From positions 62,001 to 126,000 of the forward strand of contig MU005958.1 in the NCBI GenBank assembly GCA_010093745.1: a stretch of 64,000 nucleotides of DNA. Direction: 5' to 3'. Position numbers and translations under genes: made by a program. This DNA is from Piedraia hortae CBS 480.64. Lineage: Eukaryota. The stretch's first letter is position 1. Each line of letters opens with the position of its first letter. Shown here in pieces: positions 5,552-39,468 of the stretch. The notes beneath the pieces are model-generated. The model ran no database searches. It was not told where the DNA came from and saw only the letters and a list, made by a program, of their open reading frames with translations.

Positions 5552-5623
5552 CTTTTGCACGCTGCGACGACAAATTCTTGATGCGCGTCAAAAGTGTCAA
5601 GCGGATGGATTGCGACGGCTGAA

Positions 5624-7540: not shown

Positions 7541-8226
7541 TGTTTATGAGTGTTTTATTAGAGGGTGTATGTGAGTAGAGGGTATCATATTTCTCTCTTC
7601 GGAGATTTCTTTGAGGTGGGGGTTCGTGATGTTTTGTCTTTTGTCCCAATACTCGATATTCTGAAAAACAGAGTCATCTGCGGATATCTGGGAGCATCGG
7701 CAAGCATGTCTAATGACATGCACAATACATACAGTATTAACTGGAAACATATCCACCAGCTCACTCACAGAGATGGTTAAATGCTTCGTGATCTTCTACA
7801 AATACACTGATAGAGGCGTTCACAGAAATATATTGTCTAGTCACGAATACTCACTTTAGCAGACAACACTGAAGCTATGAAAGGGTCATGAGCGAGAAAC
7901 AGCACAATCACCGACAGGCGAAGAAGGAGAACGAACGAGGAACCCTGCACCATCATTGCAATGACTGTCTATCAAAACGTTTTACCTGCCTTGCTTTCTA
8001 GGTTGGGCTCGGCTATGAAGTCCTGTTCAACGTCCACGAAGAAAACAGAATTTACACAGCAGCTTCTCCAATCACTGCGAAATTTCAGTAGCGTTTTGTG
8101 TGAAGACTTTTAAGAATTTTCTTCCAGTACTCAACGGTCTTGAATCAAACTGGTAGCGTGAACTTATCGCCGTGACGCATTTCCGGCTCAATCATCACGT
8201 CCCCCCTGCATAAGGGGAAAAAAAAA

Positions 8227-8345
8227 ACTTACAGCAGCGGGGATTCCCACGTGGTCACCCACCGTAGTACTAATTCGCCGGTTTGCAGCTTAAGTTCAGG
8301 AGAGCGGACGGGATCCTCTGTTCTCTGCAACCTATGGCCGTAAGT
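8227..8345 (-). rRNA. 5S rRNA (dispersed copy)
   Basis: Reverse complement ACTTACGGCCATAGG...GATCCCGTCCGCTC...TTAGTAC...GGGTGACCAC...GAATCC...GCTGTAAGT, 119 nt with paired ends; poly-T terminator directly after; TATA-like TTTATAAA about 25 nt upstream. Confidence 0.97.
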
Positions 8346-8760
8346 GGCTGGTTAGCAGGGAGAATCATTTATAAACTCCAGTCCTTGTTTATAATTTCAA
8401 ATGCAAACGCGAGCGAATTTTTGCACACCAACAGGAGTGTATATTTTTACGAGTGGAGGCTGATTAGGTGTGCCAAGACTGTCCCGCCTCGCAGCGTCAT
8501 TGCGCAACCTCGTCATGATTACGTGACCTCGTCTATAGCGAACCTTCCTCTTTCGTGGTAAAAATTCTGGGTAGGTGCGTCTTGTATCCCGAAGAGACTT
8601 AAGATAACCAAAAACTGCAACACAACAAAGACAAAACCACAGTGGCACTGGAAAGTCTGACGCCCTATCTTCCTCTTCCAGGCCGTTTGACACAGTCTTT
8701 ACTGCAAGCCGTCATGACTCCGCCAAGAGTGTTTCGACAAAGGGGCTACCATCACCAAGC

Positions 8761-9091
8761 CAGTCGACCCTCGCACCTAACTACTTCTGGCGCGCGTCTG
8801 ACAGGGTTTATACTGCAAGCCACGTCGACAGAGTCAACGTGAATTTTCGGCGGACTTTCACAAATAGCACCATCACAAAACCATTTGACTCGATATCCGT
8901 CGATCACCTCTTCAAGGGTCACTTTGCCCCTGCGATTGGTTAGTAAACTCAATCCCTCGCTTTGATCATCCGAGCTAACAAATCCAGGTCCTCGCCTACA
9001 GGCGGGCACAGGTACTTCCGTGGCCCTGTCGGTCGCAATCTCCAGGACACTCGACGGGCCGGCGGTCGAGGTACCTGCTGAAGGTGCATGA
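8761..9091 (+). CDS. Orphan small-protein paralog, copy A (5' end not determined; may be a pseudogene)
   Basis: Frame 8821-8938 reads ...TITKPFDSISVDHLFKGHFAPAI(G); intron 8939-8987 (GTTAGT..GCTAAC..CAG); last exon PRLQAGTGTSVALSVAISRTLDGPAVEVPAEGA*; homologous to 11124-11529. Confidence 0.6.
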
Positions 9092-9249
9092 AGCATTGGC
9101 GGCAACCTCGCCCCTGGCTGTGGCTGGAGATATGATGAAAGGCGCTTGGGGTTCTCCGTTTTTATCACGGAGTGAAAGATCACAGAGGGATTCTGTGACT
9201 TGGATGGGAAAGCACTTGCGAATGTGTACGATCATGGTAGGGCACCGAG

Positions 9250-9800
9250 GGATTTCCAAAAGTACCTATGAGATATGCAGGAGCACCTGTGAACAGCTTA
9301 GACAATGAATATGCATCACATCGATCGTCAAGCGTGGAGATTCTATCTGCAACTCCCGACAAACGATTGTATGTTGTGTTGTCACCTGTGCCTTTGAAAC
9401 TGGAAACCACCACAGCATATTTGAACAAATATGGCAGGAGCAATTTTGCACGTCTCCTGGCGTCCATCAGTGACCTGCCAATCAGCTTGACCAGGACTTT
9501 CCTTAGAAGGGTTGAAAGAGCCCGGACACTAGTGGATATGCTTTTGCAGTTAAAGTTCGCAGAAGCATTATGCGCGCACGTGGATATTAAGATTCTTAAC
9601 CCCACAACGCTTTAAAATAGACATGGAAGGAGCAAAGGGGCAGATTTGCACATCCACTAGTGTCCGCCAATGATTGGTCAGCCAGCTCGAGTGAGGTTCT
9701 TCTCTGGCTGGGCGAAAGTATCGGACGATAGTGGACGTGGTTTTGTACATACTTCGATGATATACTATGTGTGGCAGTGGAATCAGCCATTGGCGACAAT
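9250..9800 (+). pseudogene. Possible decayed Ser/Thr protein kinase relic
   Basis: In order across frameshifts and stops: HVDIKILN (like H.DIK..N), SEVLL..G/RKYRTIVDV (like PEVLLG..Y...VD.W), CVAVE. Confidence 0.3.
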
Positions 9801-11123
9801 ATTAAGTTAGATAGCCACTCAGATGGCTGTCTCAAATACACAACAGCTACGCTGGGATTTGACTACGGGTCCTCATATCAACAACACAGTAAAAATCCAT
9901 CTTTACATGTGTCCTCCTTAGCACAGAATGATACTTTGCTGTTATTTGCAACAGGCGTTCTCTTGAGCTAGTATGTGAAAGATGCTTAAGCGGCGTAGCA
10001 TCAGCAATGTTAATCTGGCGTGCGATTGGAAATGCACTGGTTCCGATGTCAAGTGTTAACTTCAAGGAATGAAATTTTTTTTGCGCTAGACCTTGGCGAA
10101 TACCTTCGTTATTGATAATTTTGGCTTGGCTTCAACGCCAATGCCTCATGTTGACTGGCTGAAAGTTCTGAACGGAATTTGTTATAAAGATGGCAGTATG
10201 ATCTTCATCTTCAATATTTGCGATAGCTTTCCTGCACAATAGGACGGCTTATATATTAAAAGTGTATTCATCAACGTGGTCGAAAGGTTAACCATTATGC
10301 CTTTACCGTCAGTATCCATCCCACGCCCTTTCCCCACGCTAACCGTCTCTACGAACATTAGGAAGCTTCCTAGAATACCCGCAACTATCCTCTTTCCACC
10401 TGGAGCCTGGCTAGCAATTCTTAATGGTCCATGTAGGGCTGGGCAGAATGACAGAGTCTGGTCTTCGAACCAAGACCTTGATAAGCAATGTGAAGACAAA
10501 CTCGAGCCCATGAGCAATCTCGTTAGAGGCTTTTTCATGCTGGAACCATATCCATGTTTCTCGGTGAATTATGGGAGGGATACATATCAGTCATCAACTG
10601 CCCCACGCAGGATCAAACTTGCTCAGGGTTCAGTCTTTTGTGACCTGTTAGTAACCCAACATGCTCAACGCCCCACGGGATCGGACGCGCTGCTGATTGT
10701 ACGCGTAAGGCCTCCACCCGGGCTGGAATAAGTAAATCTCTCCGTCGCTCTTTCTCTTTCTCGTTCTCCTTTGCATCAACTTGCGAGAGAAGCTTCAGCC
10801 ACAATCCCAAGCTAGAACCATCAATACAAGGTATTGCAAGGTAAGTGCAGCCCTTCCATATGCCTTTCACGGTCCCATCACGCCGCCTCAACACACTGCC
10901 CCGTCTCACCACTCCACCTCACCCCACCTTCATCACTTCCATCACTACGGCCTCTATCCACTTCATCTATCACCACCGCTTCACCTATCACTCCACTCCC
11001 TACGCCTCGCCCATCACTCTATGTCTTTCCACCATGCACTTTCACTCGGTTATCCATCCATCATCGCTCTTGCCTGGAATTGGTCCCATGGCTAACGTGG
11101 ACAGGCCATTTATAAGCATCACG

Positions 11124-11529
11124 ATGACTCGCTTCTGCGGTGTGCATGTCCGCCTCCCCGTCCGGGCTAAGGCTCGCAGGTTCAAACGCTGGGTCTTCAG
11201 CCGCCCGGAGCCTATCTGTCTTGGAGCTTTCGAAGACGGGGTGTTCGCGGCAGGTCGCGTCGACGGGGTTAATGTAAGTGTGCGATCAACTTACACGCAG
11301 GTTACAATCACCAAGCCCTTCAATCTCATCCCCGTCGACCACCTATTTAAGGGTCATTATGACCCCAAGATTGGTGAGTAAACCCATTCTTGGATTTCAT
11401 CGGCTAAACCAATGAAATTTTCCAGGGCCTCGCCTCGAGGTGGACACTGACACCTCCGAGCCCCTTTCCGAAGTCATCGCCAGGACGCTGGACGGGTCGG
11501 CGGCCGAGGACTCGGATGAGCGTGCGTGA
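11124..11529 (+). CDS. Orphan 117-aa protein, copy B (inside left IR arm)
   Basis: Probable 5'UTR intron 10841-11104 (GTAAGT..GCTAAC..ACAG); ATG 11124; intron 11374-11425; MTRFCGVHVRLPV...TITKPFNLIPVDHLFKGHYDPKIGPRLEVD...DERA*. Confidence 0.7.
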
Positions 11530-11587
11530 AGCAATGACGGCATCTGCCATGCTTCTTATCTTTTTCTGTTTTCTGCCTTTTTCTGCC

Positions 11588-11648
11588 TTTTGTTTTCTTG
11601 GTTTGTTTTCTTGGTTTGTTTTCTTGGTTTGTTTTCTTGGTTTGTTTT
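11588..11648. repeat. 13-bp minisatellite (TTGTTTTCTTGGT) x ~4.5; mirrored at ~25133-25193
   Basis: Direct reading. Confidence 0.9.
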
Positions 11649-11874
11649 TGGGCGGCGTTGGATGCAGGGCGCTTGGATCTTTGCTTTTCTGTTTTTTTTC
11701 CGAAAGGACCACCTGGACTTCTTGCCCTTCTTACTCCGCAAGAAGGCATACTGCACGCAGACCTACACGACTAACACACCGCACCCTACAAGATAATATT
11801 ATTATGGACGGCACGTGGAACCTGGACACCGAAGGCACCTACGAACACTCATTGACATCTACAAGATCCATAAT

Positions 11875-13800
11875 GCCCTACGGATCCCTACGGATCCCTA
11901 CAATCCCTACGGAAACCTACGATCCCTACGATGAACATTCAATGAAGCCTACGAGGCCCTACGACTCCCTATGAAACCCTAGGGAAACCTACGATCTCTA
12001 CGAAGCCCTACGAAGCCCTAAGAAAACCTACGATCCTTATGGAAACCTATAATTCCTAGGTCCGAACACTCATTAACACCTACGAGAACTTGCACAGTCC
12101 TAAGAAGGCTTTAGGAGACCTAAGGAGATCCACATACGCCTGCAATCACCTACGAAGATATTCATTACCACCTATAGACCAACACGACCACCTACAACAC
12201 CTAGACACCCCAGCGAGAACCTTTCAAAAGGCACAACATTTACGACCACATATGGAGGTTTAAGAGCATCTACAAGCATCTGCAACGACATCTGTGCATA
12301 CACTGACGGACAAATCACCGGAGAAATCATCGAAGGCTTCAACAAAGACATCGTTTACGTTCACGGAGGCATTACCAAGATCCTAATGAAGCCATCTGCA
12401 AGTGTTCAAAAGCGCCCACGAGTACATGCAAGCATTTAATGAAACATTCACTAAGACATTTACCAACCCATAGACGAAGCCACATGCGGATATTTAGAAG
12501 TTTCTACGAGCATTTGTGATGACATTCACTGGCCAGGGGTATTTACAGTTACATTTACAAGGCCATTCGAGAAGGCATTTACGAGCACAATCGACGAACT
12601 CACTTACAACTACACTTGCGAAGACTGCACGAACACCCACGGAAGACACTTCAATTATCAGCACCTTGGAGCCACAGAATATTCATGAGGTCATACGAAT
12701 ACAAGCATAAATCGCTCACACCCACGAAAACGTTCACGAAGACACCTAAGAAGGCATTTACCAAGAAATGAACAAAGCCACCTGCGTACATTTAGACGCA
12801 CCTACGACCATTTGCGAAGGCATTCAATGAGCCGCATACGTTGCCCACCTGAGGCATCTACAAAATCTTCTCGGCCTCACTCGAGGGATTTATGAGAACA
12901 ATCGACGAACTCATCTACAAGGACACAGACACCTATCCAATTGCCAGACAACAATGGAGCCACAGGGATGGTTATGAAGCACAGGCATTGAGAGGAGAAG
13001 AAGGGGCGAAGGATGAACACTCATTACCAGCAGGAAGCGAGCCAAGGAATTAGACAATCATTCGACACCACCCACAAGCAACGAGCAACGAGGATTATTC
13101 ATGGCATGAAGACTGGACAAGCGTTATGAAATCGAGAATCAGCCATGACAACACATGGACTGGATAAGCACCGACTGTACGAGCTGTAACTGGACAAACA
13201 CTAACGGCACAAGCAATATACAAGTATTCACCAACACCTGGACGATCATTAGACTAATCAACATTCAACGACAGGGAACCTAAGACGACAAGGCTGCCAC
13301 TGCAAGGAATCTCAAGGTATGACATAAGGAAGGAGAAAAGAATTTGGATGGAATGCGAGGATTACCATGCCATTGGTCAAGAGGAAGAAGCTAAATGACA
13401 AGGATGATAGCCTCAAGCGGAAGGATGACAAGCTTTTGAACAATCACCGCAGACGAAAGACGACAAGCAACTGCTGCCGACGATTAACTATAGCAGGAGG
13501 TAAGGCTTATGGCAAGGACGAGAGCGAGACGTTGACCACGACAGGGACAAGACGATTACAAGACGCACGAGAGTCTGGGAAGGTATCGAAATGGAACGGG
13601 CTGGGTTGGCGTTTGGGTACAGGAGTTTTTGCTTTGGGATGGGTGTTGGGAATGGGAGTATGGGTCGGAGTTTGGGTGAAGGAGCTTTTGCTTTGGGCGG
13701 GCAATGTATTTACTTTTCTCATAGATTTTATTATGTCAAACCGGTTTACCTTTTTCACTTTGTAGACCGGATTCAACTGTGAATATTTTTCTTCAACTTC
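11875..13800 (+). repeat. Degenerate low-complexity repeat body of the left element (CCCTACGGAT-type units grading into C/A-rich repeats)
   Basis: Reiterated ccctacg/cctacgaag units and strong strand skew; patchy similarity to the reverse complement of ~22690-24810. Confidence 0.7.
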
Positions 13801-14309
13801 TGCAATGTACACGGATCTTTCATTGTTTGAATTTACCGGCACGGGACTTTCGGCTTCTTGATCATCCATTGGCCATGCAGTATAAGACTCTGTTTCCATA
13901 TTCGGCAGTAGTGCTTCCTCCCCCCCCTCCCCCCCTCCCCTTAATTACGCAGTTAAATAGTTCTGCCTTGATAGGGCGGCATTACAAGAGCAGAGAGAGG
14001 AGTTCTCTCCTCGCGAAGAATGTACGAGGTAAGTCGAATGACGGGGATGCTGAGCCTCTCTGGCTGTGGTTTGGCTTATTTGCGGATGTGCCAAGCCGGC
14101 ACCACCCGACCTCGCTAGTCTCGGCCCCAACCCACGTCATGCCCGGGATTACGCGCCACTTCGCATCTTCACACATCACGCAGACACTTGAAGTAGGTTA
14201 GATTCACCATACGACAGCTCTAACATTGTATTCCTATCATAACGCAACTCATCCGGTCATTCCATTCAATGCACCTCAACCAACATTCCTTATTCCCCCA
14301 AACACCCTG

Positions 14310-16012
14310 CTAACTCCTCCTCGGAATGGCCTCTTTACAATGCACAGCAACCGACTTAAATAGCCTCCTCCAACCCAGCGGATCACCTTTTGCCTTAATG
14401 AACCTCACTTCAACAACCTCGAGAACAGACATTGAATGTCCTCTAATCTGCACCCGTTCGACCACGACTCTACCCCGAAGAAGTTCCCTCCTAGGATCGA
14501 GGGCTTTGATTTGGATAGAGAACTTGTCCGGCCCGTTTTGCTCTTCTGCGAGGATAGACACGTTGAGGGTTTGCAACGCGGATAAAACGAGTGGCACAAG
14601 GGCTTCGCAAGTGTAGTGCGAGTAGAATCTTGTCAGGGAGTAGGATGGGACAATGTCGTTGAATGCTCGGGCTTGTTGGGTTGCTGTCATTTGGGTAACT
14701 GGGATGCGAGTGATTTGTGATTGGGATGGGTCCTCGGAGACTGCGTCTAGGATGTCGGCTGTGGTGATGTTTTGGCTAGGGGCTGGGGGTGTGGATGATT
14801 TTAGCATGACTGAGCTGCTGCGAGGAGGCTCCTCCCATTCCCACGACATGCTTTCGTTGACGGGCGTTTCCGTGCCGGGGGTGGGCCCGGCAGCTGCTTG
14901 GGAAGCAGTCACAGCGGCGTCAAAGTCGATACGGAGACCTTCGAGCATATGGGTGGCGAGTTTGACGGGGTTGGCAACCATGCCGTCTGGGCCTAGCTGT
15001 TCGTTATTTCGACAGAACCAGGGGAGCTTCATGACTTCTGAGAGCGTCAGCCGCTTCTCGGGGTCGGGGTTTAGCATGCCCCGCAGTAGACCGACAACAT
15101 CGGAGGGTACTTTTTGCCAGAGTTCGTCTTGCGGTCGGCCAACACCTGAAGAGAGATAGTCGTGGTATTCATAGCTCTCAGCCGGGTTGGGAGAGTCCCA
15201 AGGAGTGTTGCCCGCCAACAGAACAAAGAGTACAATCGCACACGACCAGACATCTGCTCGATTAGGCATGTAGCCCACTGGGGTGTCTTCGCCTCGGTTT
15301 TTTCGTTTGCGGTTTACCTCGCCGATTTCCAAGATCTCCGGCGCTATGTAAGGTGGACTACCACAGACCATGCTGCACTTCTTGATGTTATCGTTTCGAC
15401 CAGGCAGGGCGAATTGGGTAGCCAAGCCAAAGTCTGCCAGTTTCAGATCACCGTCCTTGCTGAGAAGGATATTCTCCGGCTTAACATCGCGATGAGCAAC
15501 GCCCTTGTCATGACAATAGGCCATGGCCCGTACGAGCTGCACAAAATACAAATGGGCCACGTCCAACGAGCAACCCTCGTCAGCCTCAATTTTGTCAAAC
15601 AAATCTCCTCCCTCGGCTAATTCCATGCCCATCCAGACCCAATGCTCATCTTCACCCGCCGCCAAGAAGCGAATAATGTTCGGATGGCCCGTCACATGAT
15701 TATGAAGGGACAATTCGATTTTCAGCTGCTTGGGACGTAAACGTCCGGCTTTGTAGGCATGATCCTTGTTTATAAACTTGACCGCAATGACAGGGTGAGA
15801 GACGTGAGGCGGACACGCTTTGCGCACCCTGTTGGTCAGCAGACGCGGGCCGGATGACGCGGAAAACTCACGACGCGTAAGTGCCGGATCCAATGGTTTT
15901 GGAGATGATGCGAAATGGTATGTTGCTGGGTAAGGGCACTTGAGGAGACTACAGAGTCAGTCCGTATATCGCACCATTTGAGCGAGCGGCTTACTCCGGG
16001 AGGCGCACCCAT
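14310..16012 (-). CDS. CHK1: Checkpoint kinase Chk1
   Basis: Spliced N-terminus PFRIISKTIGSGTYAS; AVKFINK, GGDLFDKIEADEG, HRDVKPEN, DFGLA, CGSPPYIAPE; C-terminal LTRFYS and KGDPLGWRRLFK; two 5' introns; MCB ACGCGT at 16084-16089. Confidence 0.95.
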
Positions 16013-16310
16013 TGTGCAGATGGGAAGTCGAAGTGTTTGTGGCCCGTGCAGTATGCAACGCGAGCCAAACCGTCTTTACCTAGACGCGTAGTTAAGAGGT
16101 GTTGGATGAAATCCTAGGCAAGTGCTAGTGAGAGCGCACTAGGCCGGGTATACCAGTCTATACCAGGTACATACTACAACAGTATCTTACAGTCCTGTGA
16201 TAACCACAACCTCTATAAACAGAGCGCGCCGACCCAATGCTCGCAACACCCGCTTGTATCGGTCATCTCATCGTCAACAATTACAGCGCTATCCAGTGGG
16301 ACCAATTACC

Positions 16311-17819
16311 TCAACTTGCGACAGTCTGCGCCAGCATCGACTCCAAGTTGCGTTCTCGCAATATAGCCGCGTATTTGGGCTCCCGCGAGAACTTTGGTAT
16401 AGAGTCCTGATTTGGTCAGTATGAAAAAAACTGAGAACTGGAGAATAGACTTGCACTGGCCATGACTTTGAAAACACTGCTCTGAGCCTGATCAAAGAGG
16501 ACGGCGACCTCTTCAAGACTCTTCATCATCTGCGCATCTTCCGTGACCGCCTGCGTCATGCGCCCTGCCAGGGCGTTGCGCAAATTGTGGTCAATATTAA
16601 GCTCACATGGCGAGCCCGGAGCGAGAAAGGCGTTGTACAGGCTGTAAGCAGATGCTAGAGTCTCTCGAACAACGTCCATGGGAAGGACCTTATGGTTCTG
16701 CTTAGCCCGGTTGAACTCCAGCAGAAAGGCCTGCACCTCCAGATAAAAGGCTAGGTTCTCCTCGCAATGCGTCTCGACAAGATACTCGCGGAACAGCAAG
16801 CGCAAGGCCGGATCCCGAATGATAACCGTCATGCGGTTCACGTTACTGTCTCGCACAACCCCTTGCGGACGCAGGGTGGACGGTTTCCCGTTGGACGGGG
16901 CGACCGGATCTGCGATCCAGTTTGCCACGCGCATGCCCTTGGTGGTCACGGCGTGAAGGGCATGTTTGGACGCGGCAAATCTGATTGTCGCGTTGTTGAT
17001 CGGGCGGTAGTCTGAGTCGAGGGGAACGATCAAACCAAGCTGCAAGAAGGCGTTGGCAATCTCAAAAACCTCCCGCTTGTCCACCGTGGTGCAGCAGCTC
17101 ATGATCCAGTCGAACGCAGCCTTTCCGGTGAAGATGTAGGGAGACTCCTTGTCGCCGCGACGCGCACGCTGAACTCGCACACCGACCAGGCCAGTGGCAT
17201 AGTCGTTGATGGAATCAGAGTCTGAAGTGACGTTTTGGCGGACATTGGGCCCATTATTCCCGGCAAAACGGCGGAAGATGACGTGGACAGTGGCCTCGTC
17301 ATGACTAATTTTGTCAGTGTCAGGATCACGCTCGAGAATTACGAGTTGCATCATATTGCGCGGTGATTCAAGCATGTCGTTGACATGACGCTGGTGTATA
17401 CCGTTGCGCTGGCAGAAGCGCTGCAGAATGTACATGCCCTTTGGAGTCAGCTGCCACACCGACCCCTTGGAACTGAAATCTGTCTTGCCCTCCACCGACT
17501 GGATGAACCTGGCTTCGAGGAAGCGCATGCACACAGACCGCGCCATTTCTTTTGCCATGGAGAATGTTGTCGTCGTCGTTGTAACAATGCGGCTGGGGTC
17601 TTTGGGGTCGGGCATACGGTTGGATTGTGAGAACTTCAGGGACCCAAGATTCGTCAAAGCCTCTTCAGTGGTGAACGAATGGTCCACGCGGGAGAAACGG
17701 ACTCGATGGGTGGTTAAGGGGAGGCTAACAACAAGCGTGGCAAAGAGGTCCTTGAAGTCGCGGGTGTAAGGACGGTCGTCCTCCGTCATGCGGAGGAGGC
17801 GAGACGACGTCTGATGCAT
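16311..17819 (-). CDS. flbA: Regulator of G-protein signalling, FlbA/Sst2 type (DEP + RGS)
   Basis: MHQTSSRLLRMTEDDRP.TRDFKDLF, SLKFSQSNRMPDPKDPSRIVTT, ETHCEENLAFY; last exon DSIPKF...VAS* follows a GC-AG intron at 16407-16454. Confidence 0.92.
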
Positions 17820-18211
17820 TGTGCAACCTTCAGTAGGGAATTCTGTAAGGATTTAGGGGAAAAGCTGTGCGTGGCCGCGAAGCAGCTACCAATAGCGTGA
17901 CACCAAACACATGTGGGGGATGGAAACGGCCGAGACAAGCAGCCTGAGGCATCAATTGCCGCAGGCGTGTGAGAGCGGGGCAGATGGAGAAGATGGAGAA
18001 CAGATCAGGGGTTGGGGCGGTCGCGATCTTGTCGGCAGACTCGCACTCCACGGCGGGCACCCGCTAAGGGTTACTGTGGCGGAAAAAAAGGGTCTGCGGA
18101 GAGGCTGCAAAACACACGGCTCGGCTTGCGGGCGGTGATGGTCAAGCTACGGGGAGAAGGACAAAGATTTAAACCGAAAGGACAGATGTGGGTCGGGGCT
18201 TTCCACTGCCT

Positions 18212-18579
18212 CACGTGGCCCCAGAGGGACACCCTGGTCTGTATCTTCGTTTTAGGGTTGCCGAATCCTGGATCGTCCACCGCCAACGACCCGCACGTGG
18301 TCGCCGCAGCCTTCGTGCATCAAACTCACCGCCCACGTGTTTCCTTAATTCATGCGGCGCCACGTGCGGCCATTGACACTTTACATCCGTCACTTCTGAG
18401 ACCCTCTGTAGCCCTTTGTCAGACTCGGCAGTGCCACTGATCTCAGCCGCAGTGCCACAGCTGAGCACCTTTTCATGGTCGAAACATTGCGTGTGAAACC
18501 CTCGAAACCTGGGGTGCTACATTTTACTTGCATGCTCTTTCTAACCGAAAACTTCCAACGCGCAGGTGGCTTCCACGTG
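18212..18579. promoter_or_regulatory. Cluster of five CACGTG E-boxes in the divergent flbA / DUF3405 intergenic region
   Basis: CACGTG at 18212, 18294, 18334, 18361, 18574. Confidence 0.55.
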
Positions 18580-19010
18580 GGCCGGCAAAGCCTGCTTGCG
18601 AAACGCGTCCGCTCCGTTGCCTTCCAGGTTGTCGGGTCTGACGTACATGGCTGGTATGGCGGTGCACTCGGCCACGTTCAGATTCGTGGCAAAACCCCTT
18701 GCTTACGTGGTAGATATACCACCAGCAGACATGATCATGTATTTCGCTTGGTGCATCGTGGTACAAAAGCAGGGATTTCCTACTATTGGGCAGTTTGACT
18801 GGAAAAAATAAAATTGATTGGATGAGATGGCGCAATGCAAGCAAAGGCGTTTTTGTGTGACGGTGATGTCGCGGTAAGTCTCCGTCGGACCCTGATAGGC
18901 TTCGGCTGACTCATGTCAGAATTGACGTCTAGCGCGTAACAGCAACGCCCTATCACCTGATTTAGCCATCGTTTACTCGTAGTTCTACCAGCCGCGCAAC
19001 GTCGCAATCC

Positions 19011-21299
19011 ATGGGCTCCTCCACGCGCTACCGCACCCTCTCGGGGGCTCTAGTTGACATGGAGACTCGACGCAAAAGTAACATCTTGGATTATGCTGAT
19101 ACCGAGGCTCAAACCCCTATAAAACCAACCTTCGCCTATCATATTCCTCGCCGACGATTTACTCGCTTATTTACTTTGAGCCTGACAGCCACGATCGTTC
19201 TCTTCATTCTGTATCTTGTCCATGCTAGCTCTACCAATGACGCCAAGGTCCGCTTGAGCCTGAACAAACCTCCACCACCGGCTGCCTGGGAGCAATTTCC
19301 ATTCCTAAAGCGCTTTCATGGAGGAATCCGCACGCTTGTGGACCGGGAAGACAACAAGCCCGAGTTCCCTGCAGAAAATGCTGCTGAGGCCATAAAATTA
19401 TTACCAACAGTACATCCGACGAGGTCCCAAGAGAAGCGCCAAGCTGCCGAGGCAAATGCGCAAGGTACAACGACTACGGAAACGCATTCAAATGCATTTC
19501 TCGGCAAAAGTCAACGATTCGATCCGTATGGTCACTGGCCGACGAGTGATTATGAGCCGCGAGTGAAGTGTTATCTCGATAATCGGACTAGACTCGACGT
19601 TCCGCAGCTTTTAGCATACCGCGGTGTCGTGCGCGGCTTTCCAGACCCAGCCATGGGATCATACAAAGAGCTGGGCTTGCGCGATGATGTTTGCTTTGAG
19701 CGATATGGTCGGCTCGGGCCGTATGGTCTTGGCTACAGTCGCAAGTTTGGGGGCTCGGGTGCTGCAATGGATGCGGAGAACGAAGGATACATGGCGGTTT
19801 GGGGTGGGAGCGAGGAAAACCAGGTCCCATGGAGCGGAATCGAATGGGACAAGGCCCAGAAAGAATGTCATGAAGCCAATAATCACCGCTTTAAGCATGA
19901 GTCAAGCCCAAAGCAAGCTGAGTCAAGGGAAAAGACAGAAAAAGGCCCATCGGGACTGAAGCTACTTCCCAAAAAGGCCGTTGTCATTCGGACCTGGCAC
20001 GACTACGACTATGATGCTGAGGATCTCATGTATCTGCGAGCACTTGTCAACGAATTATCGCTTCAATCCGGCGGAGAATACAACGTTCATTTCCTGATAC
20101 ACGTCAAAAACGACAGCCTGCCAATCTGGTCAGATGACGAAGTCCATAGTCGTGTGTTAAGAGAAGCATTACCAGAAGAGTTCCGAGGCATGGGTACACT
20201 CTGGTCCGAGGCCCAGATGGCGTACGTTTACACTGGGCTGCCAGATAGTAGCTACCGTGGCCTGCCTGTGTATGGGGCTTATCGAAGCACTTTCCTGCCA
20301 ATGCAGTTGTTCGCCCATAATCACCCCGAGTACAAGTTCTTTTGGCATTGGGAGATGGATGCTCGATATACCGGTCACTATTACCATCTCTTCCATCAGG
20401 TATCTGAGTGGGCTAAGCAGCAGCCACGCAAGGGTCTGTGGGAACGCAACGGCCGCTTTTACATACCCTCAGAACACGGCAGCTGGGACGACTTTCGACA
20501 CATGGTGCGTGTCCAGACTGAGCATGGCACAGGAAGCAAACAAAACATGTACGGCAAGCTCGGGGCTGATGCTGGAATCAGGCACCCGCTAGATGAACAG
20601 TCTCGGCGGCCTGAACAGCCAGTCTGGGGACCGTTGCCACCATCCACAAATGAAATGGTCAAGTCAGGAGATGAACCGGAGCCACCAGTTAGCTACGACA
20701 AGGACAACTACGATTGGGGTGTGGGTGAGGAGGCGGATCTCATTACCTTCAATCCCTTGTTCGATCCTGACTCGACAAACTGGATCTTGGCAGAGGACGT
20801 GACTGGATATAACACCAGCGATGGCTTACCGCCACGACGAACAGCCATAATCACAGCCTCTCGTCTCAGCAGACGACTGCTTCAAACTATGCATCGAGAA
20901 ACCTCGGTCGGTCACCACACCATGTTTTCCGAAATGTGGCCTGGATCGTGTGCGTTGCATCACGGGTACAAAGCTGTCTATGCCCCGCATCCGGTATACA
21001 TCGATCGAGCCTGGCCAACTTCATACATGGCCGCCATTTTTAACAATGGACGCAACGGAGCAGCAGGTGGAGCCAGAACCTCTGTCTTTAGCGATGAACG
21101 GCAGCATAATTTCCTGGGAACGACATGGTACTACCATGCCGGACACGCACCAAACCTTTGGAGGCGCTGGCTGGGCTTCCGTGTGGATAACGACGGCGGT
21201 GAAGAATACGAGAAGACTAATGAAGGGCGCATGTGTCTGCCAGCAATGCTGCTACATCCTGTTAAACAAGTAGATTTAATATTCGAGCATGAAGGCTGA
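19011..21299 (+). CDS. DUF3405-like fungal type II membrane protein (putative glycosyltransferase-like)
   Basis: Single N-terminal TM; DVCFERYGRLGPYG, AVVIRTW, LRALVNELSL, FFWHWEMDARYTGHYY, SRLSRRLL, LLHPVK motifs. Confidence 0.8.
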   Translation: MGSSTRYRTLSGALVDMETRRKSNILDYADTEAQTPIKPTFAYHIPRRRFTRLFTLSLTATIVLFILYLVHASSTNDAKVRLSLNKPPPPAAWEQFPFLKRFHGGIRTLVDREDNKPEFPAENAAEAIKLLPTVHPTRSQEKRQAAEANAQGTTTTETHSNAFLGKSQRFDPYGHWPTSDYEPRVKCYLDNRTRLDVPQLLAYRGVVRGFPDPAMGSYKELGLRDDVCFERYGRLGPYGLGYSRKFGGSGAAMDAENEGYMAVWGGSEENQVPWSGIEWDKAQKECHEANNHRFKHESSPKQAESREKTEKGPSGLKLLPKKAVVIRTWHDYDYDAEDLMYLRALVNELSLQSGGEYNVHFLIHVKNDSLPIWSDDEVHSRVLREALPEEFRGMGTLWSEAQMAYVYTGLPDSSYRGLPVYGAYRSTFLPMQLFAHNHPEYKFFWHWEMDARYTGHYYHLFHQVSEWAKQQPRKGLWERNGRFYIPSEHGSWDDFRHMVRVQTEHGTGSKQNMYGKLGADAGIRHPLDEQSRRPEQPVWGPLPPSTNEMVKSGDEPEPPVSYDKDNYDWGVGEEADLITFNPLFDPDSTNWILAEDVTGYNTSDGLPPRRTAIITASRLSRRLLQTMHRETSVGHHTMFSEMWPGSCALHHGYKAVYAPHPVYIDRAWPTSYMAAIFNNGRNGAAGGARTSVFSDERQHNFLGTTWYYHAGHAPNLWRRWLGFRVDNDGGEEYEKTNEGRMCLPAMLLHPVKQVDLIFEHEG

Positions 21300-21576
21300 A
21301 AATCTTAGAATACACCATAATGAGACACGAATCTATATGTTCTTGCCTCACTGGCCAAGATCTTCAAACTGATCAAATGTCTCCGGATGGATGTCACATG
21401 TAGTGAATTTTCAATACGGCGCTAGTGTGAAATCGTAGTGGCGTGGCGCAGGTAGAGTTGGCCAATCGCGCGGGTTGCGCCGTCACGTCACTCCACGCCA
21501 TTGACATCAAGGACCTCAAGCGCCAGCCTTGGGGTCTCTTTGAACCCAAGCCAACTGTTATTCCCGCCTACACTCC

Positions 21577-22383
21577 ATGTCCTTCAACGATTCCCCCGCC
21601 CTAGAGGCACAACCTACAACGTGGCGCCGCAGCGATGATGCCACGTATCGCGACGATCCCGAATACGACAAATTCACTAAGCAGCTTTCGGAGCAGTTGT
21701 TCGGCCTCACAGCTGGCATCTCGCGTCTCTCCAACGAAGTAGGCCTACTGGGAACTCGACGCGAGACTGAGCGCGTACGCGAGCGAGTACAGGACCTCCT
21801 CCACGAGACGAGTGATGGATTCAAATCAGTCGGCGAAGGGATAAAGAAGATCCAGGCTCGCCAGGATCTAAATCCAAGCCAACGATACACGCAGACTAAG
21901 CTGTCGCAAGAATTTGGCGCTAGCCTAAACGAGTTCCAGGGTTTACAACGCCGGGCTTTGGAGAAGCAACGCGCCAGTCAGGCCGCAGCCAAAGCTGCCT
22001 TGGAAACACAGGGAGAAGATCAATCTATTGAGCCCGATTCCGCCCAGCTCCAGCAGGAACAGCGCCTTGCGCAGCAAGACGACGTCGACTTCCAGGAGAG
22101 TTTGATTATCGAACGCGAGGCGGAGATTCGCAACATCCAGTCTTCCGTCGGCGAGCTGAACGAGCTTTTCCGCGACGTGGCCGCCATTGTGCATGAGCAA
22201 GGCCAGGTGCTCGACCTTGTGTCCGATAATGTTACACGAACTGCGGAGGACACGAGAAGGGCGGATGTCGAGCTCCGTGCGGCAAGCAGACACCAGAGAA
22301 GTGCTCGAGGCAAGGCGTGTTGTCTTCTTCTGATCCTGGTAATTGTGCTCCTGGTTGTCGTTTTGGCCGTTGTTTTGGGTTGA
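21577..22383 (+). CDS. Vacuolar/endosomal syntaxin (Pep12/Vam3-like Qa-SNARE)
   Basis: Habc domain, SNARE motif EREAEIRNIQ..ELNELFRDVAAIVHEQG, C-terminal TM anchor. Confidence 0.92.
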   Translation: MSFNDSPALEAQPTTWRRSDDATYRDDPEYDKFTKQLSEQLFGLTAGISRLSNEVGLLGTRRETERVRERVQDLLHETSDGFKSVGEGIKKIQARQDLNPSQRYTQTKLSQEFGASLNEFQGLQRRALEKQRASQAAAKAALETQGEDQSIEPDSAQLQQEQRLAQQDDVDFQESLIIEREAEIRNIQSSVGELNELFRDVAAIVHEQGQVLDLVSDNVTRTAEDTRRADVELRAASRHQRSARGKACCLLLILVIVLLVVVLAVVLG

Positions 22384-22689
22384 GGATCATTGCTTGTGTC
22401 TTGTCCTTAGCGTACGCGTTTATGTCAGTGTTTTACTATGTGCCAATTCAATGGACTGATCAGACTTTCCACGTCACGCTGCGTTGGTAAGGGAAAATCT
22501 CGCCTTTGATAAATTTGCTCTTTTCAATAACAGCTATTTAATCGGTGTGGTTTGACAATGAAAGATTTGTTGAACATACAGTCTGCATGACTCGCTCTTC
22601 GCGTAATGGTTAGCCGCTGTGGCTCATTGAGTCAGAGCCGTCCACGATAGTGGATATGGTGATGGTCAGCCGTAGGTTCCCTCTATATT

Positions 22690-24810
22690 GTGTTCATCTC
22701 ACTGTTAATCCAGAATTTTGCACGGCTTCGGTATTAGAGAAAAACAAGTCTCAACATACCGAAACCGAAAGTTCAGTGACAGGAATTGTAAATTTACGGT
22801 GTCCAAGACCAGTGCGAGAGTTGGAGAAATAAAAGATTCCCCAACTCCCTTGCTCTCCCAAATGCGTCTTGTGCCTGTTTCCGTCAGCAACCGGCTTCCA
22901 GCCTTCAGCCACGCTCTCACTCTCGCCTTCAGCCTAGTATATTTGATAGTTGTCGGCCTTCGGGTGCTTGTCCTCGTGCCAGTCCCGTTCGTCTGCCAAG
23001 ATGCTTGTCCCAATGTCCATTGCGTCTCGTTATCGTCCTGTTTCTGTTTCGGTAAAGTTAATATCTTGCTTCCAGTCTCCAGCTGTATTCCCACCCTTGA
23101 CTTCAGCCTCGTATATTTGAAAATCGTCGGTCTTCGAATGCTTGCTTATCGTTGTTTCCAATTCGTCTGCCCTGATTGTCCAAAGGCTTGTCCAGTGCTT
23201 GCGAAATGCTTCTCCCAACGCTCCTCGTCCTTGCTCCTATCTGCCTCCTTCCCTTCAGCCATGTTCATGCCAACAGTCATCGTCTAGGCCCACCCCGCCT
23301 CCATGGGTAGGATAGAGGTGGGATGGACCTGGACAATGACCAGTGGCATGGTCCTTCTCTCCATCCTACTGTCCACGCTCGGGTGTCTTTGCTGTTGTGT
23401 CCTTGCTGTCTTCGATACTATGTTGGTGCTTTTTGGCTGTTTCAACGATCGAAGGGATGGTGCTGTTAGTGCTGTCTGGTTAGTACTTGTACGGTTAGTG
23501 CTCTTCCAGGGAGTGCTGTCCGGTTAGTGCTCGTCCAGTGAGTGCTTATCCATGTGATGCTTGTCCCGTTGTTGGGCATGTAGTGAGTGCTCGTCCCGTT
23601 AGTGCTCGTCCAGTCCACCTAGCCTTGTCACAGTTAATACTCGGTCGAACTCTTGCCGGCAAGGTCAAGTGATAGTTTAGGGCTTCTTTACCCACTTCTT
23701 GCTCCTGCTGGCAATTAGTGGTTATTGCTTCTCCATTTCCTCTTCCTGTTAATGATTGTGTTGTTGCTCGCCCAAGATTGTCCACGTAGCTTCGGTGTTG
23801 TCTAATGATTGAATAGTCGATTGAATAGTCGTCCGTGCGGGTCCGTGAATAGGCTCAATCAAGTGTGTTAAATGTTGATGGTCGTATTCTTGAATGATGC
23901 CGTGAATAGCTTTATATCGCCCTTGTAGGTGCCTCATGTCGGAGATGTATGTGTCTCAGTGAAAGTCTTCGTGAATGCCTGTGAGAGCTCCGAAGTGTTC
24001 CAAAGAGGTTTCATTGATGTCTCAGTTAGTCCCTTTGTAAGTGTCAACGATGATGTGTGCTTGTATTTCTTCGTAAATTCATTCGTTAATGCCACCAGGA
24101 AATGTCACCGATTTACGCTTATATTTTCCGCAAATGTCTTCATCTTGAGCGTATGTGTCTTCGCGATTGTTTTCATGAATGCTTGCAGGTCCTCTTGAAT
24201 GATTGTTGGTGGCTTTGTCAATGTCTTTGTATACGATACGTGCTTGCTCAAGTGCTGGTAAATGTCCGCAAGTGTCTATGACAATCTTCGTGAATGAATG
24301 CGTGGATAGTCTGTAAACCCTCTTAAAGATCTCGTGGTTCTGTTAAGGATGACAATGTAGATGCTCGTAAAAGCTCTTAAATCTTCACACGTAGTCGTAG
24401 ATATTGTGGTCTTGCAGGGGTTTCCGTAGGGGCGTCGAGGTGGATTAGGAAATTGCGCGGGTTCATGTGTGGTAAGGAATGTCTTCGTAGGTGCTTGCAT
24501 TCATATGTGGGTATCCTTAGGTCTGCTTAGGACTCTATAGGTGTTTAAGGCTTTTCGTAGGCTGTCGTGGTGAGTCGTAGGGTTTCGTAGGTGTCAACGA
24601 GTGTTCGTCGTAGGGATTAGTAGGGACACATAGGGACACATAGGGACAAGTAGGCATCAATGAGCGGTGGTAGGGCTTTTTAGGTCCTTATAGGTGCCCG
24701 TCCCGGCCAATAGGTGGTAACGAGTGCTCTTCTTAGGTGCTTGTCGGCGTGCGTGGGTCTTCTCAGGTCTTCCAGGTCTTTTAAGGCTTGTGCAGGCTTC
24801 CGTGGGTTGC
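22690..24810 (-). repeat. Degenerate repeat body of the right element (diverged homolog of ~11971-13800, inverted)
   Basis: Shared blocks such as tttaagagc.t.tac.agcatct, tgaggca.ctacaa and cacatgga..taagcac; conceptual RLVPV in ORFs 22718-23287(+) and 13507-13899(-). Confidence 0.65.
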
Positions 24811-26280
24811 AGGGAATCGTAGGGCCTCGTAGGCTTCGTTGAATGTTCATCGTAGGGATCGTAGGTTTCCGTAGGGATTGTAGGGATCCGTAGGGATCCG
24901 TAGGGCATTATGGATCTTGTAGATGTCAATGAGTGTTCGTAGGTGCCTTCGGTGTCCAGGTTCCACGTGCCGTCCATAATAATATTATCTTGTAGGGTGC
25001 GGTGTGTTAGTCGTGTAGGTCTGCGTGCAGTATGCCTTCTTGCGGAGTAAGAAGGGCAAGAAGTCCAGGTGGTCCTTTCGGAAAAAAAACAGAAAAGCAA
25101 AGATCCAAGCGCCCTGCATCCAACGCCGCCCAAAAACAAACCAAGAAAACAAACCAAGAAAACAAACCAAGAAAACAAACCAAGAAAACAAAAGGCAGAA
25201 AAAGGCAGAAAACAGAAAAAGATAAGAAGCATGGCAGATGCCGTCATTGCTTCACGCACGCTCATCCGAGTCCTCGGCCGCCGACCCGTCCAGCGTCCTG
25301 GCGATGACTTCGGAAAGGGGCTCGGAGGTGTCAGTGTCCACCTCGAGGCGAGGCCCTGGAAAATTTCATTGGTTTAGCCGATGAAATCCAAGAATGGGTT
25401 TACTCACCAATCTTGGGGTCATAATGACCCTTAAATAGGTGGTCGACGGGGATGAGATTGAAGGGCTTGGTGATTGTAACCTGCGTGTAAGTTGATCGCA
25501 CACTTACATTAACCCCGTCGACGCGACCTGCCGCGAACACCCCGTCTTCGAAAGCTCCAAGACAGATAGGCTCCGGGCGGCTGAAGACCCAGCGTTTGAA
25601 CCTGCGAGCCTTAGCCCGGACGGGGAGGCGGACATGCACACCGCAGAAGCGAGTCATCGTGATGCTTATAAATGGCCTGTCCACGTTAGCCATGGGACCA
25701 ATTCCAGGCAAGAGCGATGATGGATGGATAACCGAGTGAAAGTGCATGGTGGAAAGACATAGAGTGATGGGCGAGGCGTAGGGAGTGGAGTGATAGGTGA
25801 AGCGGTGGTGATAGATGAAGTGGATAGAGGCCGTAGTGATGGAAGTGATGAAGGTGGGGTGAGGTGGAGTGGTGAGACGGGGCAGTGTGTTGAGGCGGCG
25901 TGATGGGACCGTGAAAGGCATATGGAAGGGCTGCACTTACCTTGCAATACCTTGTATTGATGGTTCTAGCTTGGGATTGTGGCTGAAGCTTCTCTCGCAA
26001 GTTGATGCAAAGGAGAACGAGAAAGAGAAAGAGCGACGGAGAGATTTACTTATTCCAGCCCGGGTGGAGGCCTTACGCGTACAATCAGCAGCGCGTCCGA
26101 TCCCGTGGGGCGTTGAGCATGTTGGGTTACTAACAGGTCACAAAAGACTGAACCCTGAGCAAGTTTGATCCTGCGTGGGGCAGTTGATGACTGATATGTA
26201 TCCCTCCCATAATTCACCGAGAAACATGGATATGGTTCCAGCATGAAAAAGCCTCTAACGAGATTGCTCATGGGCTCGAG
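24811..26280 (-). repeat. Right arm of the 1.47-kb inverted repeat
   Basis: Reverse complement of 10501-11970; outer junction lies within the palindrome GGGCTCGAGCCC at 26272-26283. Confidence 0.98.
25252..25657 (-). CDS. Orphan 117-aa protein, copy C (same as copy B)
   Basis: Mirror of 11124-11529 inside the right IR arm. Confidence 0.7.
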
Positions 26281-26959
26281 CCCTCTTAAACCATTCGCAG
26301 GCCGTTTCTCCCATACAACATTGCTAGGGAGCTGGAAACCACCTAGTAGGAGTCTCTTCCAGTGGCAAAACACCTATTGAAGCTATGTAGATGCCTAATT
26401 GCAGCCGATATGAAATCGTTTATGACGCCTTCCTCTATCTATTATCTTCTGCACGTACAAGCTCGTTCACACACAAGTCAGATGACTTGGTAATGATATG
26501 CGTGCATTGTATCATGTGGGAATGTTACCAGATATTTACAGGGCCAATCCACAAATGCTATTGGCCGAGGATCACTCAGAGAATGGCAGGGAAGTAAGGG
26601 CAAGTGTGCCTAGCGAGCTGAAGTGCCTTCTAGCATGGGGCACAAACGGACCCCTGTACCATGGGCAAGAAGGTCTGCTTAGGTCGCTACGTGTAAGGAA
26701 AAAGCTGACAAGTACGGTAACCAGGAGCAGCGACAACACACATGAAAAAGGGATAAGGTTTTGCCAAGACGGGCTCGGATGCATCGATAAAAATCTAAAC
26801 CAATTATACTTCCCTTGAAGAGAACAAACAATGGATCGTCACAATGAAAGTATCAAGGTACAGTAAGACATCATGATAAGATAATTGTAAATGAGTTTGG
26901 ATAAAGAGATTTCAATAAGATGTTTCTTTGTAAGACTATCAACACTCTAAGCCTGTCTC

Positions 26960-28126
26960 TCAATAAAAATCGTGAGGATGAGCCCTCGCCACCATTGTGA
27001 CACTAGGCGGAGAGGTCGTCGACGTAGGCACAGCGGATCTAACCGTCATAATGGTCTGAAACCTGCTCGAGGTATTTGCAGGACTCACTGCCGTCGATGA
27101 AGGCGTTGCAGAACTTATGATGAATGCTCCACTTGTCACCGAGGCGCTAACATAAATCACTGTCGCCGTAGATGTTGGTTACGCCGTAGCAGCACCTAGG
27201 CTCTGTATCAAGCCTACAAGCTGCTTGTTCATCTTCAAGACAGAAGTTTAAGCCTCACCATCAAAGACTGTAAAAGCGTTGCACGAAGCTGGTACCGGAG
27301 CTGTTGTGGGGTTTGTACAAGCACCACATTGCGTCGCAGTTGCCAAGGTGGCACCAATAGTCTTGCAAGTGGTGTAATACTCATCCTTGCCATCGGGATA
27401 GGTGCAGTCCGCTTACAGCTGAGTCGGTCACTGCCACACCCAGTAGACTGTCAACTTACCCTCTGGATGAGATGCCGTGATCTGAACATTACTCTCGCAC
27501 CATTGCTCCAGGCTGGATGTGGGCTGACCCGGGACGTGGTTGAGAAAGAGGACCTGGCGGGTGAGTGATACGTTGCCGCAGTTGAGCTGGTGGCACCTAC
27601 CATCGTTGTAGATTTGAGCGGCCATCAGGAAACCATGGCCGTTATCACCTTTGCCGTCTTTCATCCACTGAAGGACATCAACCATCTTTTTGGACTCAAA
27701 TGGCTGGGTAGTGTCATAGACTAAAACGGTGCCGCTGGCCTTTGGCTTGCCAAGCTGGTTTCAGGGCATGGTGACGTGGCCGTTTTCCAGATGCTTCATC
27801 GCTACACAGCTACCCGACTGGGCCTGCAGCATTGGGTAGCTAGGATTGGTGTAGTTGGAAGCATGCTGAGAGGGGTGGCAGAGGAGATCCGAAGAGTAGA
27901 TCTGGATCCGGCCGGACTCACCAGCTGGCACCTGATAGTTCACTGAAAAGCCGTTAAATGAGGGGTCGATGCGTGCAACATACCCACGAGAAAAGCTACG
28001 ATCGCCTATGTAACTGCCGTTCGAACCGATGACCTGGAACTCATCAATCAAGGAATAGCCAAAAGCAGGACCAGCCAATCTTAGAAGGCCAGAAACAAAG
28101 GCGAGAGCTTTGACGTTGCTGAACAT
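26960..28126 (-). pseudogene. Pseudogene of a secreted fungal protein (signal peptide, Cys-containing domain, Ser/Thr-rich tail)
   Basis: ORFs 27761-28126, 27428-27685 and 26960-27160 share one frame; in-frame stops at 27761, 27428, 27413, 27248, 27179; motifs NGSYIG..RGYVAR, ENGHV, DGRC, YWVWQ*P, EYYTTC. Confidence 0.8.
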
Positions 28127-28132
28127 GACAAA

Positions 28133-28201
28133 AATGTATGCAGATGAATGTATGCAGATGAATGTATGCAGATGAATGTATGCAGATGAATGTATGCAGA
28201 T
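28133..28201. repeat. 14-bp tandem repeat (AATGTATGCAGATG) x ~5 just upstream of the pseudogene ATG
   Basis: Direct reading. Confidence 0.95.
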
Positions 28202-28894
28202 AATGTGGTTGTGATGAGGTGCAATGCAAGTTGGTGAGTGATATGGTCAGAAGTAGGCAAACTCGACGCTTTTATGGTCGAAGTGAACAGTGCTGCGAGA
28301 CAATATTATCGACGATCGACAATCGACAATGGAGCATTGTGATATCGGCTCCTGTTTCTTCATCTGTAGCAAGTCCTTTGTTCCTCATCACAAGGTGATT
28401 GAATCCTTTTCTACTTGACACTAAATTGCGTGAATGGAAGAAAGAGCATTGTAGTTAAGTGGGACGAACTGATAGTGTGAGTACACTAAAACATAATTGT
28501 ATTGTTATATATGCAGCATACATGAAAGGACGTTGTTCATGGTCATCACGTGACATATCCTTCAACTTTTGTTGACATTGTGTTTCAGACATCCCAGAAC
28601 CTGCATGCAACTCGGTAGACTGATTGAGCATTTGTGCGTGTAAAACTAACGCGTCAGTGCAACCTATCACATGACAAAATTTTTTTTGCCCAATGGTAGC
28701 CCGAGAAGTTTCGTGTACTAATGCAAAGAGGTCACTTATCAAAAAGAGGGTCATGGTGCGTGGCTGACACTCTACACAGCCTCCCACCACGCCTGAATAA
28801 GCCAATCAAACTATGAAATTGCGTGCACAAAGACCCAACTTCATTTTTCACATTACTATAAATTCCAATTTCTCATACTCACACAGTATAGATC

Positions 28895-32858: not shown

Positions 32859-33280
32859 GGCGGAGCGGCGAGTGGTGTGCGCAGCGTGATCGAAGTGGTC
32901 GTCGGCGAATTCTCCGGTTCTCCGCGGCGATGGCGCCGAGTCCGGGTGAGTGAGGGGTTCGCGCCAGGTCAGTCAGCATTCATTACGGCGGGAAGCCGCG
33001 GACAAAAATGCGATAGGGCGGAAAGAGGAGGCTGTTAGAGGCGAATGAGGTGGTCAGCGTGGAAGAATTGGAGGGAAAATGGGTGGGAGAGTGGCAGTGG
33101 ATGGGCGTTGGCCAGGGCGCGACGGCTGCTCCCGCAACGCGACTCTACCAACGCGTCCCACCCCTGTCTGCACACTCCCACCTGCCCGCCCTCGGGTCTG
33201 TGGCCGTCTTGTTCCACACGCAATTTGCCCCTCACGCCCCCTGAAAAGATGGGGAAAATTGTATATGCCATTACATCACA

Positions 33281-39392: not shown

Positions 39393-39468
39393 CTGTATAT
39401 AGGATGCGGTAAACCACGTGACATAAAAATATCTGATATGGTCATGTTCAAACAGCAAAAAAAGATGG

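Follow-up and report, generated by a model that had tools for sequence, protein, structure and literature searches.

How do two exact copies of one sequence come to lie in opposite orientation on either side of a four-gene block in a filamentous ascomycete, and what do they allow that block to do? The question is raised by Piedraia hortae CBS 480.64, a fungus of human hair (PMC7082219), in a stretch of 64,000 nucleotides (positions 62,001 to 126,000 of contig MU005958.1, assembly GCA_010093745.1) that is called the window below and belongs to the scaffold labelled C2. The block holds genes for the kinase CHK1, an FlbA-like protein, a DUF3405 protein and a Pep12/Vam3-type syntaxin. On balance, we consider it probable that two gene copies, once in tandem, were brought into inverted orientation by an old inversion, and that a recent ectopic conversion then copied the right arm over the left. 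This reading starts from three observations: the identity between the gene copies is a mosaic, the arms belong to a gene family, and the gene order of the block is reversed with respect to relatives. A literature search over titles and the beginnings of abstracts, with subscription journals and supplements outside its scope, returned no account of the locus.

Two copies of an exact arm

A preliminary description of the window had reported a near-perfect inverted repeat, and this is borne out. Positions 10501-11970 and 24811-26280 are reverse complements without indels, their paired coordinates summing to 36781, and the only mismatches, at 11943 and 11965, both fall at the inner edge; the exact tract measures 1,442 bp (10501-11942 and 24839-26280) and the spacing of the arms is 12,840 bp. 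The features concerned are:

10501 to 11942, plus strand: left exact arm, comprising the promoter region, exons 1-3 and the beginning of the 3' untranslated region of gene copy E1 (its 5' part)
24839 to 26280, minus strand: right exact arm, the 5' part of gene copy E2
11943 to 11970, plus strand: inner fringe, with 26 of 28 bases alike; its partner is 24811-24838

The fringe may be an older conversion tract or simply the site of strand invasion.

The existence of both arms was assessed on the contigs of a DNA run (X1) and of a second run from one study (X2), presumably of RNA, which were compared over 8000-24800, so that the right outer junction is not seen directly. Depth in the X1 contigs is 23.4 and 21.7 in the arm, against 12.8 to the left of it and 13.0-13.2 in the block. 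Since this is about twice the flanking depth, two copies of the arm exist, and the notion of a single copy duplicated during assembly is ruled out. The X1 arm contigs start exactly at 10501 and stop at 11942, without alternative letters, and one X2 contig is likewise free of them in the arm; X1 may be the assembly's own source, and hence not independent, and contigs of this kind drop variants. Rather unlikely, in our judgement, is an assembly effect of another sort, in which both copies are real and the block was oriented with no spanning data to guide the choice (the true order being that of relatives), or differences between the arms were merged into a consensus, or both. The possible role of X1 as source, the breaking of short-read contigs inside the arm with loss of variants, and the presence of other exact tracts of like length in the genome (1,348 plus 96 bp) would all agree with it. 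The doubled depth and the contigs without other letters do not, and neither do the few gaps (just 160 N on the whole of C2, none of them in the window) or the assembled phase, which keeps the right-hand flank, F, together with the inner part that is more similar to a third gene copy, E3.

The arms as part of an orphan gene family

Far from being young repeats that stand alone, the arms form the 5' part of two older spliced gene copies, E1 and E2, of about 3.3 kb each; this coding gene within the arm, the degraded homology that continues inward from it and the wider family to which it belongs all lie beyond the preliminary description. The coding sequence is:

11124 to 11529, plus strand: coding sequence of a 117-residue orphan protein (11124-11373 joined to 11426-11529), mirrored on the minus strand at 25657-25252

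The introns of the arm gene, at 10841-11104 and 11374-11425, have GT..AG ends and joints that are spliced in X2 contigs, and the spliced frame encodes 117 amino acids identical to public protein P0001, an entry that bears the name Piedraia hortae. Mismatches against five paralogs, which are not independent of one another, number 71, 67 and 187 at codon positions 1, 2 and 3, and this bias towards the third position indicates that the open reading frame (ORF) is a real coding gene. The protein has no Pfam family. Searched against 1.84 billion representatives, it met only itself, the other four of five matches being unrelated repetitive proteins, and only itself again among proteins of 64-205 amino acids; all its matches in Atlas were below 0.9, and a single-sequence model reached a pLDDT (predicted local distance difference test) of 36.7.

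Six further family copies were found besides E1 and E2, broken or partial. The paralogs P1, E3 and P2 (the last two at G000:C2:147-156 kb) and those on C83 and C38 are interrupted by stops or frameshifts, incomplete or devoid of a start codon, so that the two arms hold the only intact copies found. Two family members precede the left arm:

8488 to 9781, plus strand: P1, a diverged paralog of the arm gene; it is spliced, and its homologous frame has no start codon
7672 to 8060, plus strand: E0, what is left of the 3' part of a further E copy, directly following NDC1

E0 is 70% alike to E2 over 101 nucleotides (E value 2e-8) and matches E3 and E1 more weakly. The preliminary description had allowed for the arm being an ordinary young repeat with many dispersed copies: dispersed relatives do exist, but they are old (about 68-80% alike), not young.

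Transcripts of the arm gene include a region of about 2.3 kb past the stop codon, which contains a conserved intron. One X2 contig spans 12463-21314, that is, the 3' region of E1, CHK1, flbA and DUF3405, with introns on both strands; it suggests overlapping convergent 3' ends for the E1 and CHK1 transcripts, with the proviso that a contig shows no single transcript.

A mosaic of identity

Homology between E1 and E2 does not end with the exact arms, and the following features bear on its extent:

11971 to 13850, plus strand: diverged inner part of E1, a long 3' region with an intron at 13500-13544
22750 to 24810, minus strand: diverged inner part of E2, a long 3' region with an intron at 22875-22920
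26281 to 28451, minus strand: flank F, which includes a broken copy of DUF7492; its counterpart next to E3 is F' (G000:C2:155666-157795)

E3, the third copy (C2:155665-151960), shares 76-82% identity with the arm. The homology between E1 and E2 reaches about 1.8 kb further inward, as far as about 13850 on the left and 22750 on the right, and a three-way alignment puts it at 44-70% there. X2 contigs cover both of these stretches, and the intron in each has the same sense as the arm gene. Over some 90 bp, identity drops from 100% to about 70%, in a step and not in a slope. The earlier suggestion that the arms are very recent or homogenised stands in its second half, for a part of the pair that was recently homogenised, but the pair itself is older and has diverged inward.

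On the outer side, the upstream regions of E2 and E3 match each other (score 690, z 188; 79% alike), whereas that of E1, before 10501, matches neither (z 1.1 and -0.7); this contrast favours E2 as the donor. On the inner side, local scores are 479 for E2-E3, 336 for E1-E2 and 300 for E1-E3, even though the arms of E1 and E2 are identical, and in two distal blocks it is the E2 side that is more similar to E3 (identity 0.76 and 0.74, against 0.60 and 0.52). A recent conversion or template switch in which E2 was copied onto E1 would produce such a mosaic, and from it we infer that the right arm, in E2, probably acted as donor and the left arm, in E1, as recipient.

The same flanks bear on whether the arms might be long terminal inverted repeats of a composite mobile element with the four genes as cargo, a proposal that matches the geometry of the locus only and that we find scarcely credible. 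There is no target-site duplication, flbA and CHK1 stand in their ancestral neighbourhood, and the four large ORFs belong to ordinary Pfam families. The right arm runs on in homology with the flank of E3 and is therefore not an element end, which, with the missing target-site duplication, rules out the arm as a terminal inverted repeat or long terminal repeat. No transposase was found among the eight ORFs scanned, a set that does not cover every small ORF.

Gene order in relatives and a history of the locus

The block and its neighbours comprise:

14310 to 15956, minus strand: CHK1 kinase, main ORF with further short 5' exons; the call agrees with its top PDB matches
16416 to 17852, minus strand: flbA-like protein, main ORF, with RGS and DEP domains
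18966 to 21299, plus strand: DUF3405 gene (Pfam family)
21544 to 22383, plus strand: Pep12/Vam3-type syntaxin (syntaxin/SNARE)
5582 to 7540, plus strand: NDC1, left syntenic anchor
8088 to 8345: spacer homologous to the spacer between E3 and its 5S gene, with a 5S rRNA gene at 8226-8345 on the minus strand
31440 to 32972, minus strand: right syntenic anchor, a casein kinase I (CK1) gene by its sequence motifs

The gene calls of the preliminary description for the block are upheld by PDB and Pfam matches, and so is its single-copy state, 14300-22400 having itself as its only match in the genome. The closest FlbA relatives belong to the Teratosphaeriaceae (74-76%).

For comparison, 80 flbA loci of dothideomycete relatives were taken from metagenomes. 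CHK1 lies downstream of flbA on the same strand in 19 of them, and ten of these 19, with at least 1.8 kb beyond CHK1, are informative. Five of the ten, all distinct, have CK1 tail to tail with CHK1, and none has NDC1 beyond CHK1; NDC1 is found instead beside PEP12, upstream of flbA, in three of the 80 loci (two distinct). In the window the order is NDC1, then CHK1 to PEP12, then CK1. Set against that of relatives, this order means that the block is reversed as assembled, an outcome for the orientation check that had been proposed at the outset. The arms sit in exactly the two intervals where the order breaks, and the E regions have no DNA match in the 80 loci. The third locus reads F'-E3-spacer-5S'-P2; the window has F and E2 on the right and E0, spacer, 5S, P1 and E1 on the left, repeating the order that follows E3 (spacer 8088-8198 against the third-locus spacer, z 11.5). 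E0, next to NDC1, is a candidate left breakpoint of the old inversion.

The history that we favour would begin with a lineage-specific array, F-E2-5S-P1-E1, lying between CHK1 and CK1 and ordered like F'-E3-5S'-P2. A single old inversion, broken close to NDC1/E0 on one side and, on the other, in the interval from PEP12 to the 3' end of E2, would have turned the direct E pair into an inverted one, leaving E1 and E2 face to face; undoing this step would rejoin F-E2-spacer-5S-P1-E1 as a single array and restore both gene neighbourhoods. E0 is perhaps a staggered-break duplicate from that old inversion. A recent staggered-break inversion as the source of the exact arm itself is ruled out, as it leaves the old homology inside both arms unexplained. 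In a second, recent step, repair by homologous recombination (ectopic conversion or template switch) would have carried 1.44 kb from E2 to E1, the copied tract ending on the outside where homology ends and on the inside in a zone of short repeats, and repeat-induced point mutation (RIP) would have left the product unmutated. The block would now be able to flip at a low rate through normal crossovers in the arms. Little effect would be expected from this, because each gene of the block would retain its promoter and the swap would involve no more than the 3' ends of two identical coding sequences.

A possible, if somewhat doubtful, alternative is that the inversion itself arose by a crossover inside the arms of E copies that were already inverted, the exact tract being its conversion footprint and the block being either fixed or variable between isolates. 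The position of the arms in exactly the two order-break intervals agrees with such an event, as does the fact that a flip at the arms restores the CHK1-CK1 and NDC1-PEP12 neighbourhoods. It predicts, however, that F is joined to the less E3-like inner part, whereas the data lean weakly the opposite way (479 against 300; 0.76/0.74 against 0.60/0.52), a phase test of which inner part belongs with F that is itself weak; and it needs separate E insertions on both sides of the block.

Several points count against an old inversion followed by conversion from E2. No contig passes through an arm so as to connect its flank with its inner part, since the contigs break inside it. Five of the ten informative loci (three distinct) have neither CK1 nor any of the seven window genes tested past CHK1, and DUF3405 occurs in none of the 80 relative loci. 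NDC1 and PEP12 stand head to head in relatives, whereas the reconstruction yields them tail to tail, so that two further small inversions are needed. The distal identities of E2-E3 (0.745, bootstrap interval 0.713-0.779) and E1-E3 (0.727, 0.695-0.757) overlap, their shuffled baseline is 0.63-0.65, and the proximal half gives no resolution. Finally, one genome by itself shows neither which way the copying went nor whether it was non-reciprocal.

Elsewhere in the window, 54821-55435 is a degenerate tandem array with units of about 85-120 bp at 60-77% identity, and 39286-39561 holds an intron-containing tRNA gene (39466-39561) with a 79% partial copy about 170 bp upstream.

Exact tracts elsewhere in the genome and the lack of a RIP signature in its sampled part

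Self-repeats were surveyed over about 0.73 Mb (all of C2 and C83 and 10 kb of C38, chosen for holding paralogs). Four of the ten pairs of at least 200 bp at 90% identity or more exceed 1 kb, the present repeat among them. On C83, two DUF7492 copies (G000:C83:2629-4073 and 20290-21735) form an inverted pair about 16 kb apart, with an exact core of 1,348 bp, 96 bp more past one mismatch, and flanks at 55-79%; between them lie ordinary genes, including ORFs that are methionyl-tRNA synthetase-like and Rad52-like by their motifs. A third DUF7492 copy, at C2:17.7-18.7 kb, is exact with the C83 pair over 986 bp. Hence, kilobase exact tracts arise between dispersed copies generally, even where flipping is impossible, and the second inverted pair with an exact core shows that the pattern recurs in the genome. 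The DUF7492 copies on C15 and C21, taken from their scores as near-identical, were rejected as such, being about 72% alike.

The survey also met other repeats on C2. G000:C2:171380-173497 and 177436-177993 contain a 406-bp inverted pair at 98%, along with further near-identical pieces, none of it RIP-mutated; by its motif, the sequence resembles the 3' end of a long interspersed nuclear element. A near-identical element of about 124 bp occurs at G000:C2:18670-18793 and at 292449-292572; it is inserted in a DUF7492 copy and forms both ends of C2 in opposite orientation.

In Neurospora, close-set inverted repeats are strongly mutated by RID-dependent RIP (10.1101/2021.04.05.438447). The preliminary description had pointed to repeats of this kind as prime RIP substrates. 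The present arms escaped it: their TpA/ApT ratio of 0.65 and (CA+TG)/(AC+GT) of 1.23 are not RIP-like, and transitions between the arm and E3 have no context bias (CA 28, CG 33, CC 38, CT 33). None of the 674 1-kb windows on C2 is RIP-like, about 4% of the genome having been sampled for RIP and self-repeats. Across ascomycetes RIP is patchy and its genes have been lost in places (PMC12543289), Piedraia hortae not being named in the main text of that account. Two PF00145 genes were found in the genome, among three matches that represent a lower bound. One, at G000:C59:38530-40530, is an apparently intact two-exon cytosine methyltransferase of 647 amino acids with EQT at motif VI, which is probably of RID/Masc1 type, although no source names it RID. 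The other is an ORF of 2,037 amino acids, presumably of DNMT5 type by its architecture. The search for RID and Dim-2 advised earlier has thus yielded a RID-like gene and no DIM-2 among the three matches, again a lower bound.

Taken further, these data might be read to mean that RIP is silent in spite of an intact RID-type gene, and that the inverted pairs (this one and that of C83) are kept identical by continuing arm-to-arm exchange, which would preserve the only two intact copies of the orphan gene and leave housekeeping blocks as recombinase-free flip-flop isomers within one strain. We regard this as improbable.

Comparison with known inversion systems

The preliminary description had likened the locus to yeast mating-type (MAT) flip-flop. 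The MAT locus was not located: the genome gave 12 HMG-box matches, none of them on C2, and no alpha-box match in a weak test in which no control gave a signal. A split HMG box on C3, the one of the 12 that was looked at more closely, is presumably an Nhp6-type gene, judging by its sequence. As for a repression site, C2 has no TTAGGG dimer and its lowest 1-kb GC content is 0.43, and there are genes on both sides of the block. With neither a MAT gene nor a repression or silencing site found, programmed flip-flop is unlikely, and the likeness fails also in that a flip here swaps 3' ends only.

A regulated or high-frequency flip-flop, in which repeated exchange keeps the arms identical and cultures or ascospore progeny carry both orientations, is accordingly placed by us as very unlikely. 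Arm length and spacing do fall within the range of the FF1 system (2-kb repeats around 8-44 kb; PMC6692504), identity is exact right to the outer edge, and the 26/28 fringe could be an older conversion tract. Against this stand the lack of alpha-box matches in that weak test, the 0 of 12 HMG-box matches on C2, the absence there of a telomere motif or an AT-rich window, the covering of the block genes by spliced X2 contigs, the fall of identity as a step and the like exact tracts between different contigs, which cannot flip.

The FF1 flip/flop loci of Ogataea, Pachysolen and Ascoidea shift MAT genes relative to a centromere or telomere, and resemble the present locus in that one inverted repeat flanks a region (here about 1.5 kb around about 13 kb); this block, however, consists of CHK1, flbA, DUF3405 and a syntaxin, without MAT genes, and no centromere or telomere was found beside it, centromeres not being mapped (PMC6692504). 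In Sclerotinia sclerotiorum the MAT region is inverted at each meiosis between repeats of 250 bp, and there too the repeat belongs to a gene, MAT1-1-1 (PMC3574095). In that case the inversion truncates MAT1-1-1, whereas here the complete orphan coding sequence lies in both arms and flipping truncates no gene. The locus is not a member of either family.

Closer likenesses are found among unprogrammed rearrangements. Arm-to-arm conversion in Y-chromosome palindromes is a comparable system, and with ectopic conversion between paralogs the locus shares a kilobase exact tract inside an older, diverged inverted pair, with E3 as outgroup copy. Recurrent human inversions are flanked by inverted repeats of 1.6-24 kb and likewise have repeats at their ends and need no dedicated recombinase (PMC3961182); this locus differs in lying in a compact fungal genome with a RID-like gene, and in that its inversion is known from one assembled orientation. 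Dothideomycete mesosynteny (PMC3516569) offers small blocks reversed within a chromosome, with repeats near breakpoints, which are enriched in simple repeats there, as opposed to the lineage-specific orphan gene array here. In the staggered-break inversions of Drosophila (PMC1885836) a parallel can be drawn with E0 and the 3' part of E2, inverted at the two proposed breakpoints, but the duplicate here is from a multi-copy family and old (about 70%), and is not the exact arm. The literature search found no account of staggered inversion breakpoints in fungi. On this analysis, the locus would amount to an ordinary case of paralog conversion, located where a mesosyntenic inversion has its ends, and would be passively invertible in the way of the repeat-flanked human inversions.

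Implications

If an old inversion followed by recent conversion is indeed what took place, the locus is a well-resolved mesosyntenic inversion with both of its breakpoints and a recent paralog conversion, in a filamentous ascomycete showing no RIP, a case that is useful but brings no surprise. Should a single strain prove to carry both orientations, the locus would be an invertible gene block outside MAT in a filamentous fungus, would provide an easy four-junction assay for the origin of dothideomycete inversions, and would also give a handle on the role of a RID-type gene when RIP leaves no trace. More generally, were the arms kept identical by continuing exchange, the locus would allow one source of dothideomycete mesosynteny, unconnected with MAT, to be observed directly.

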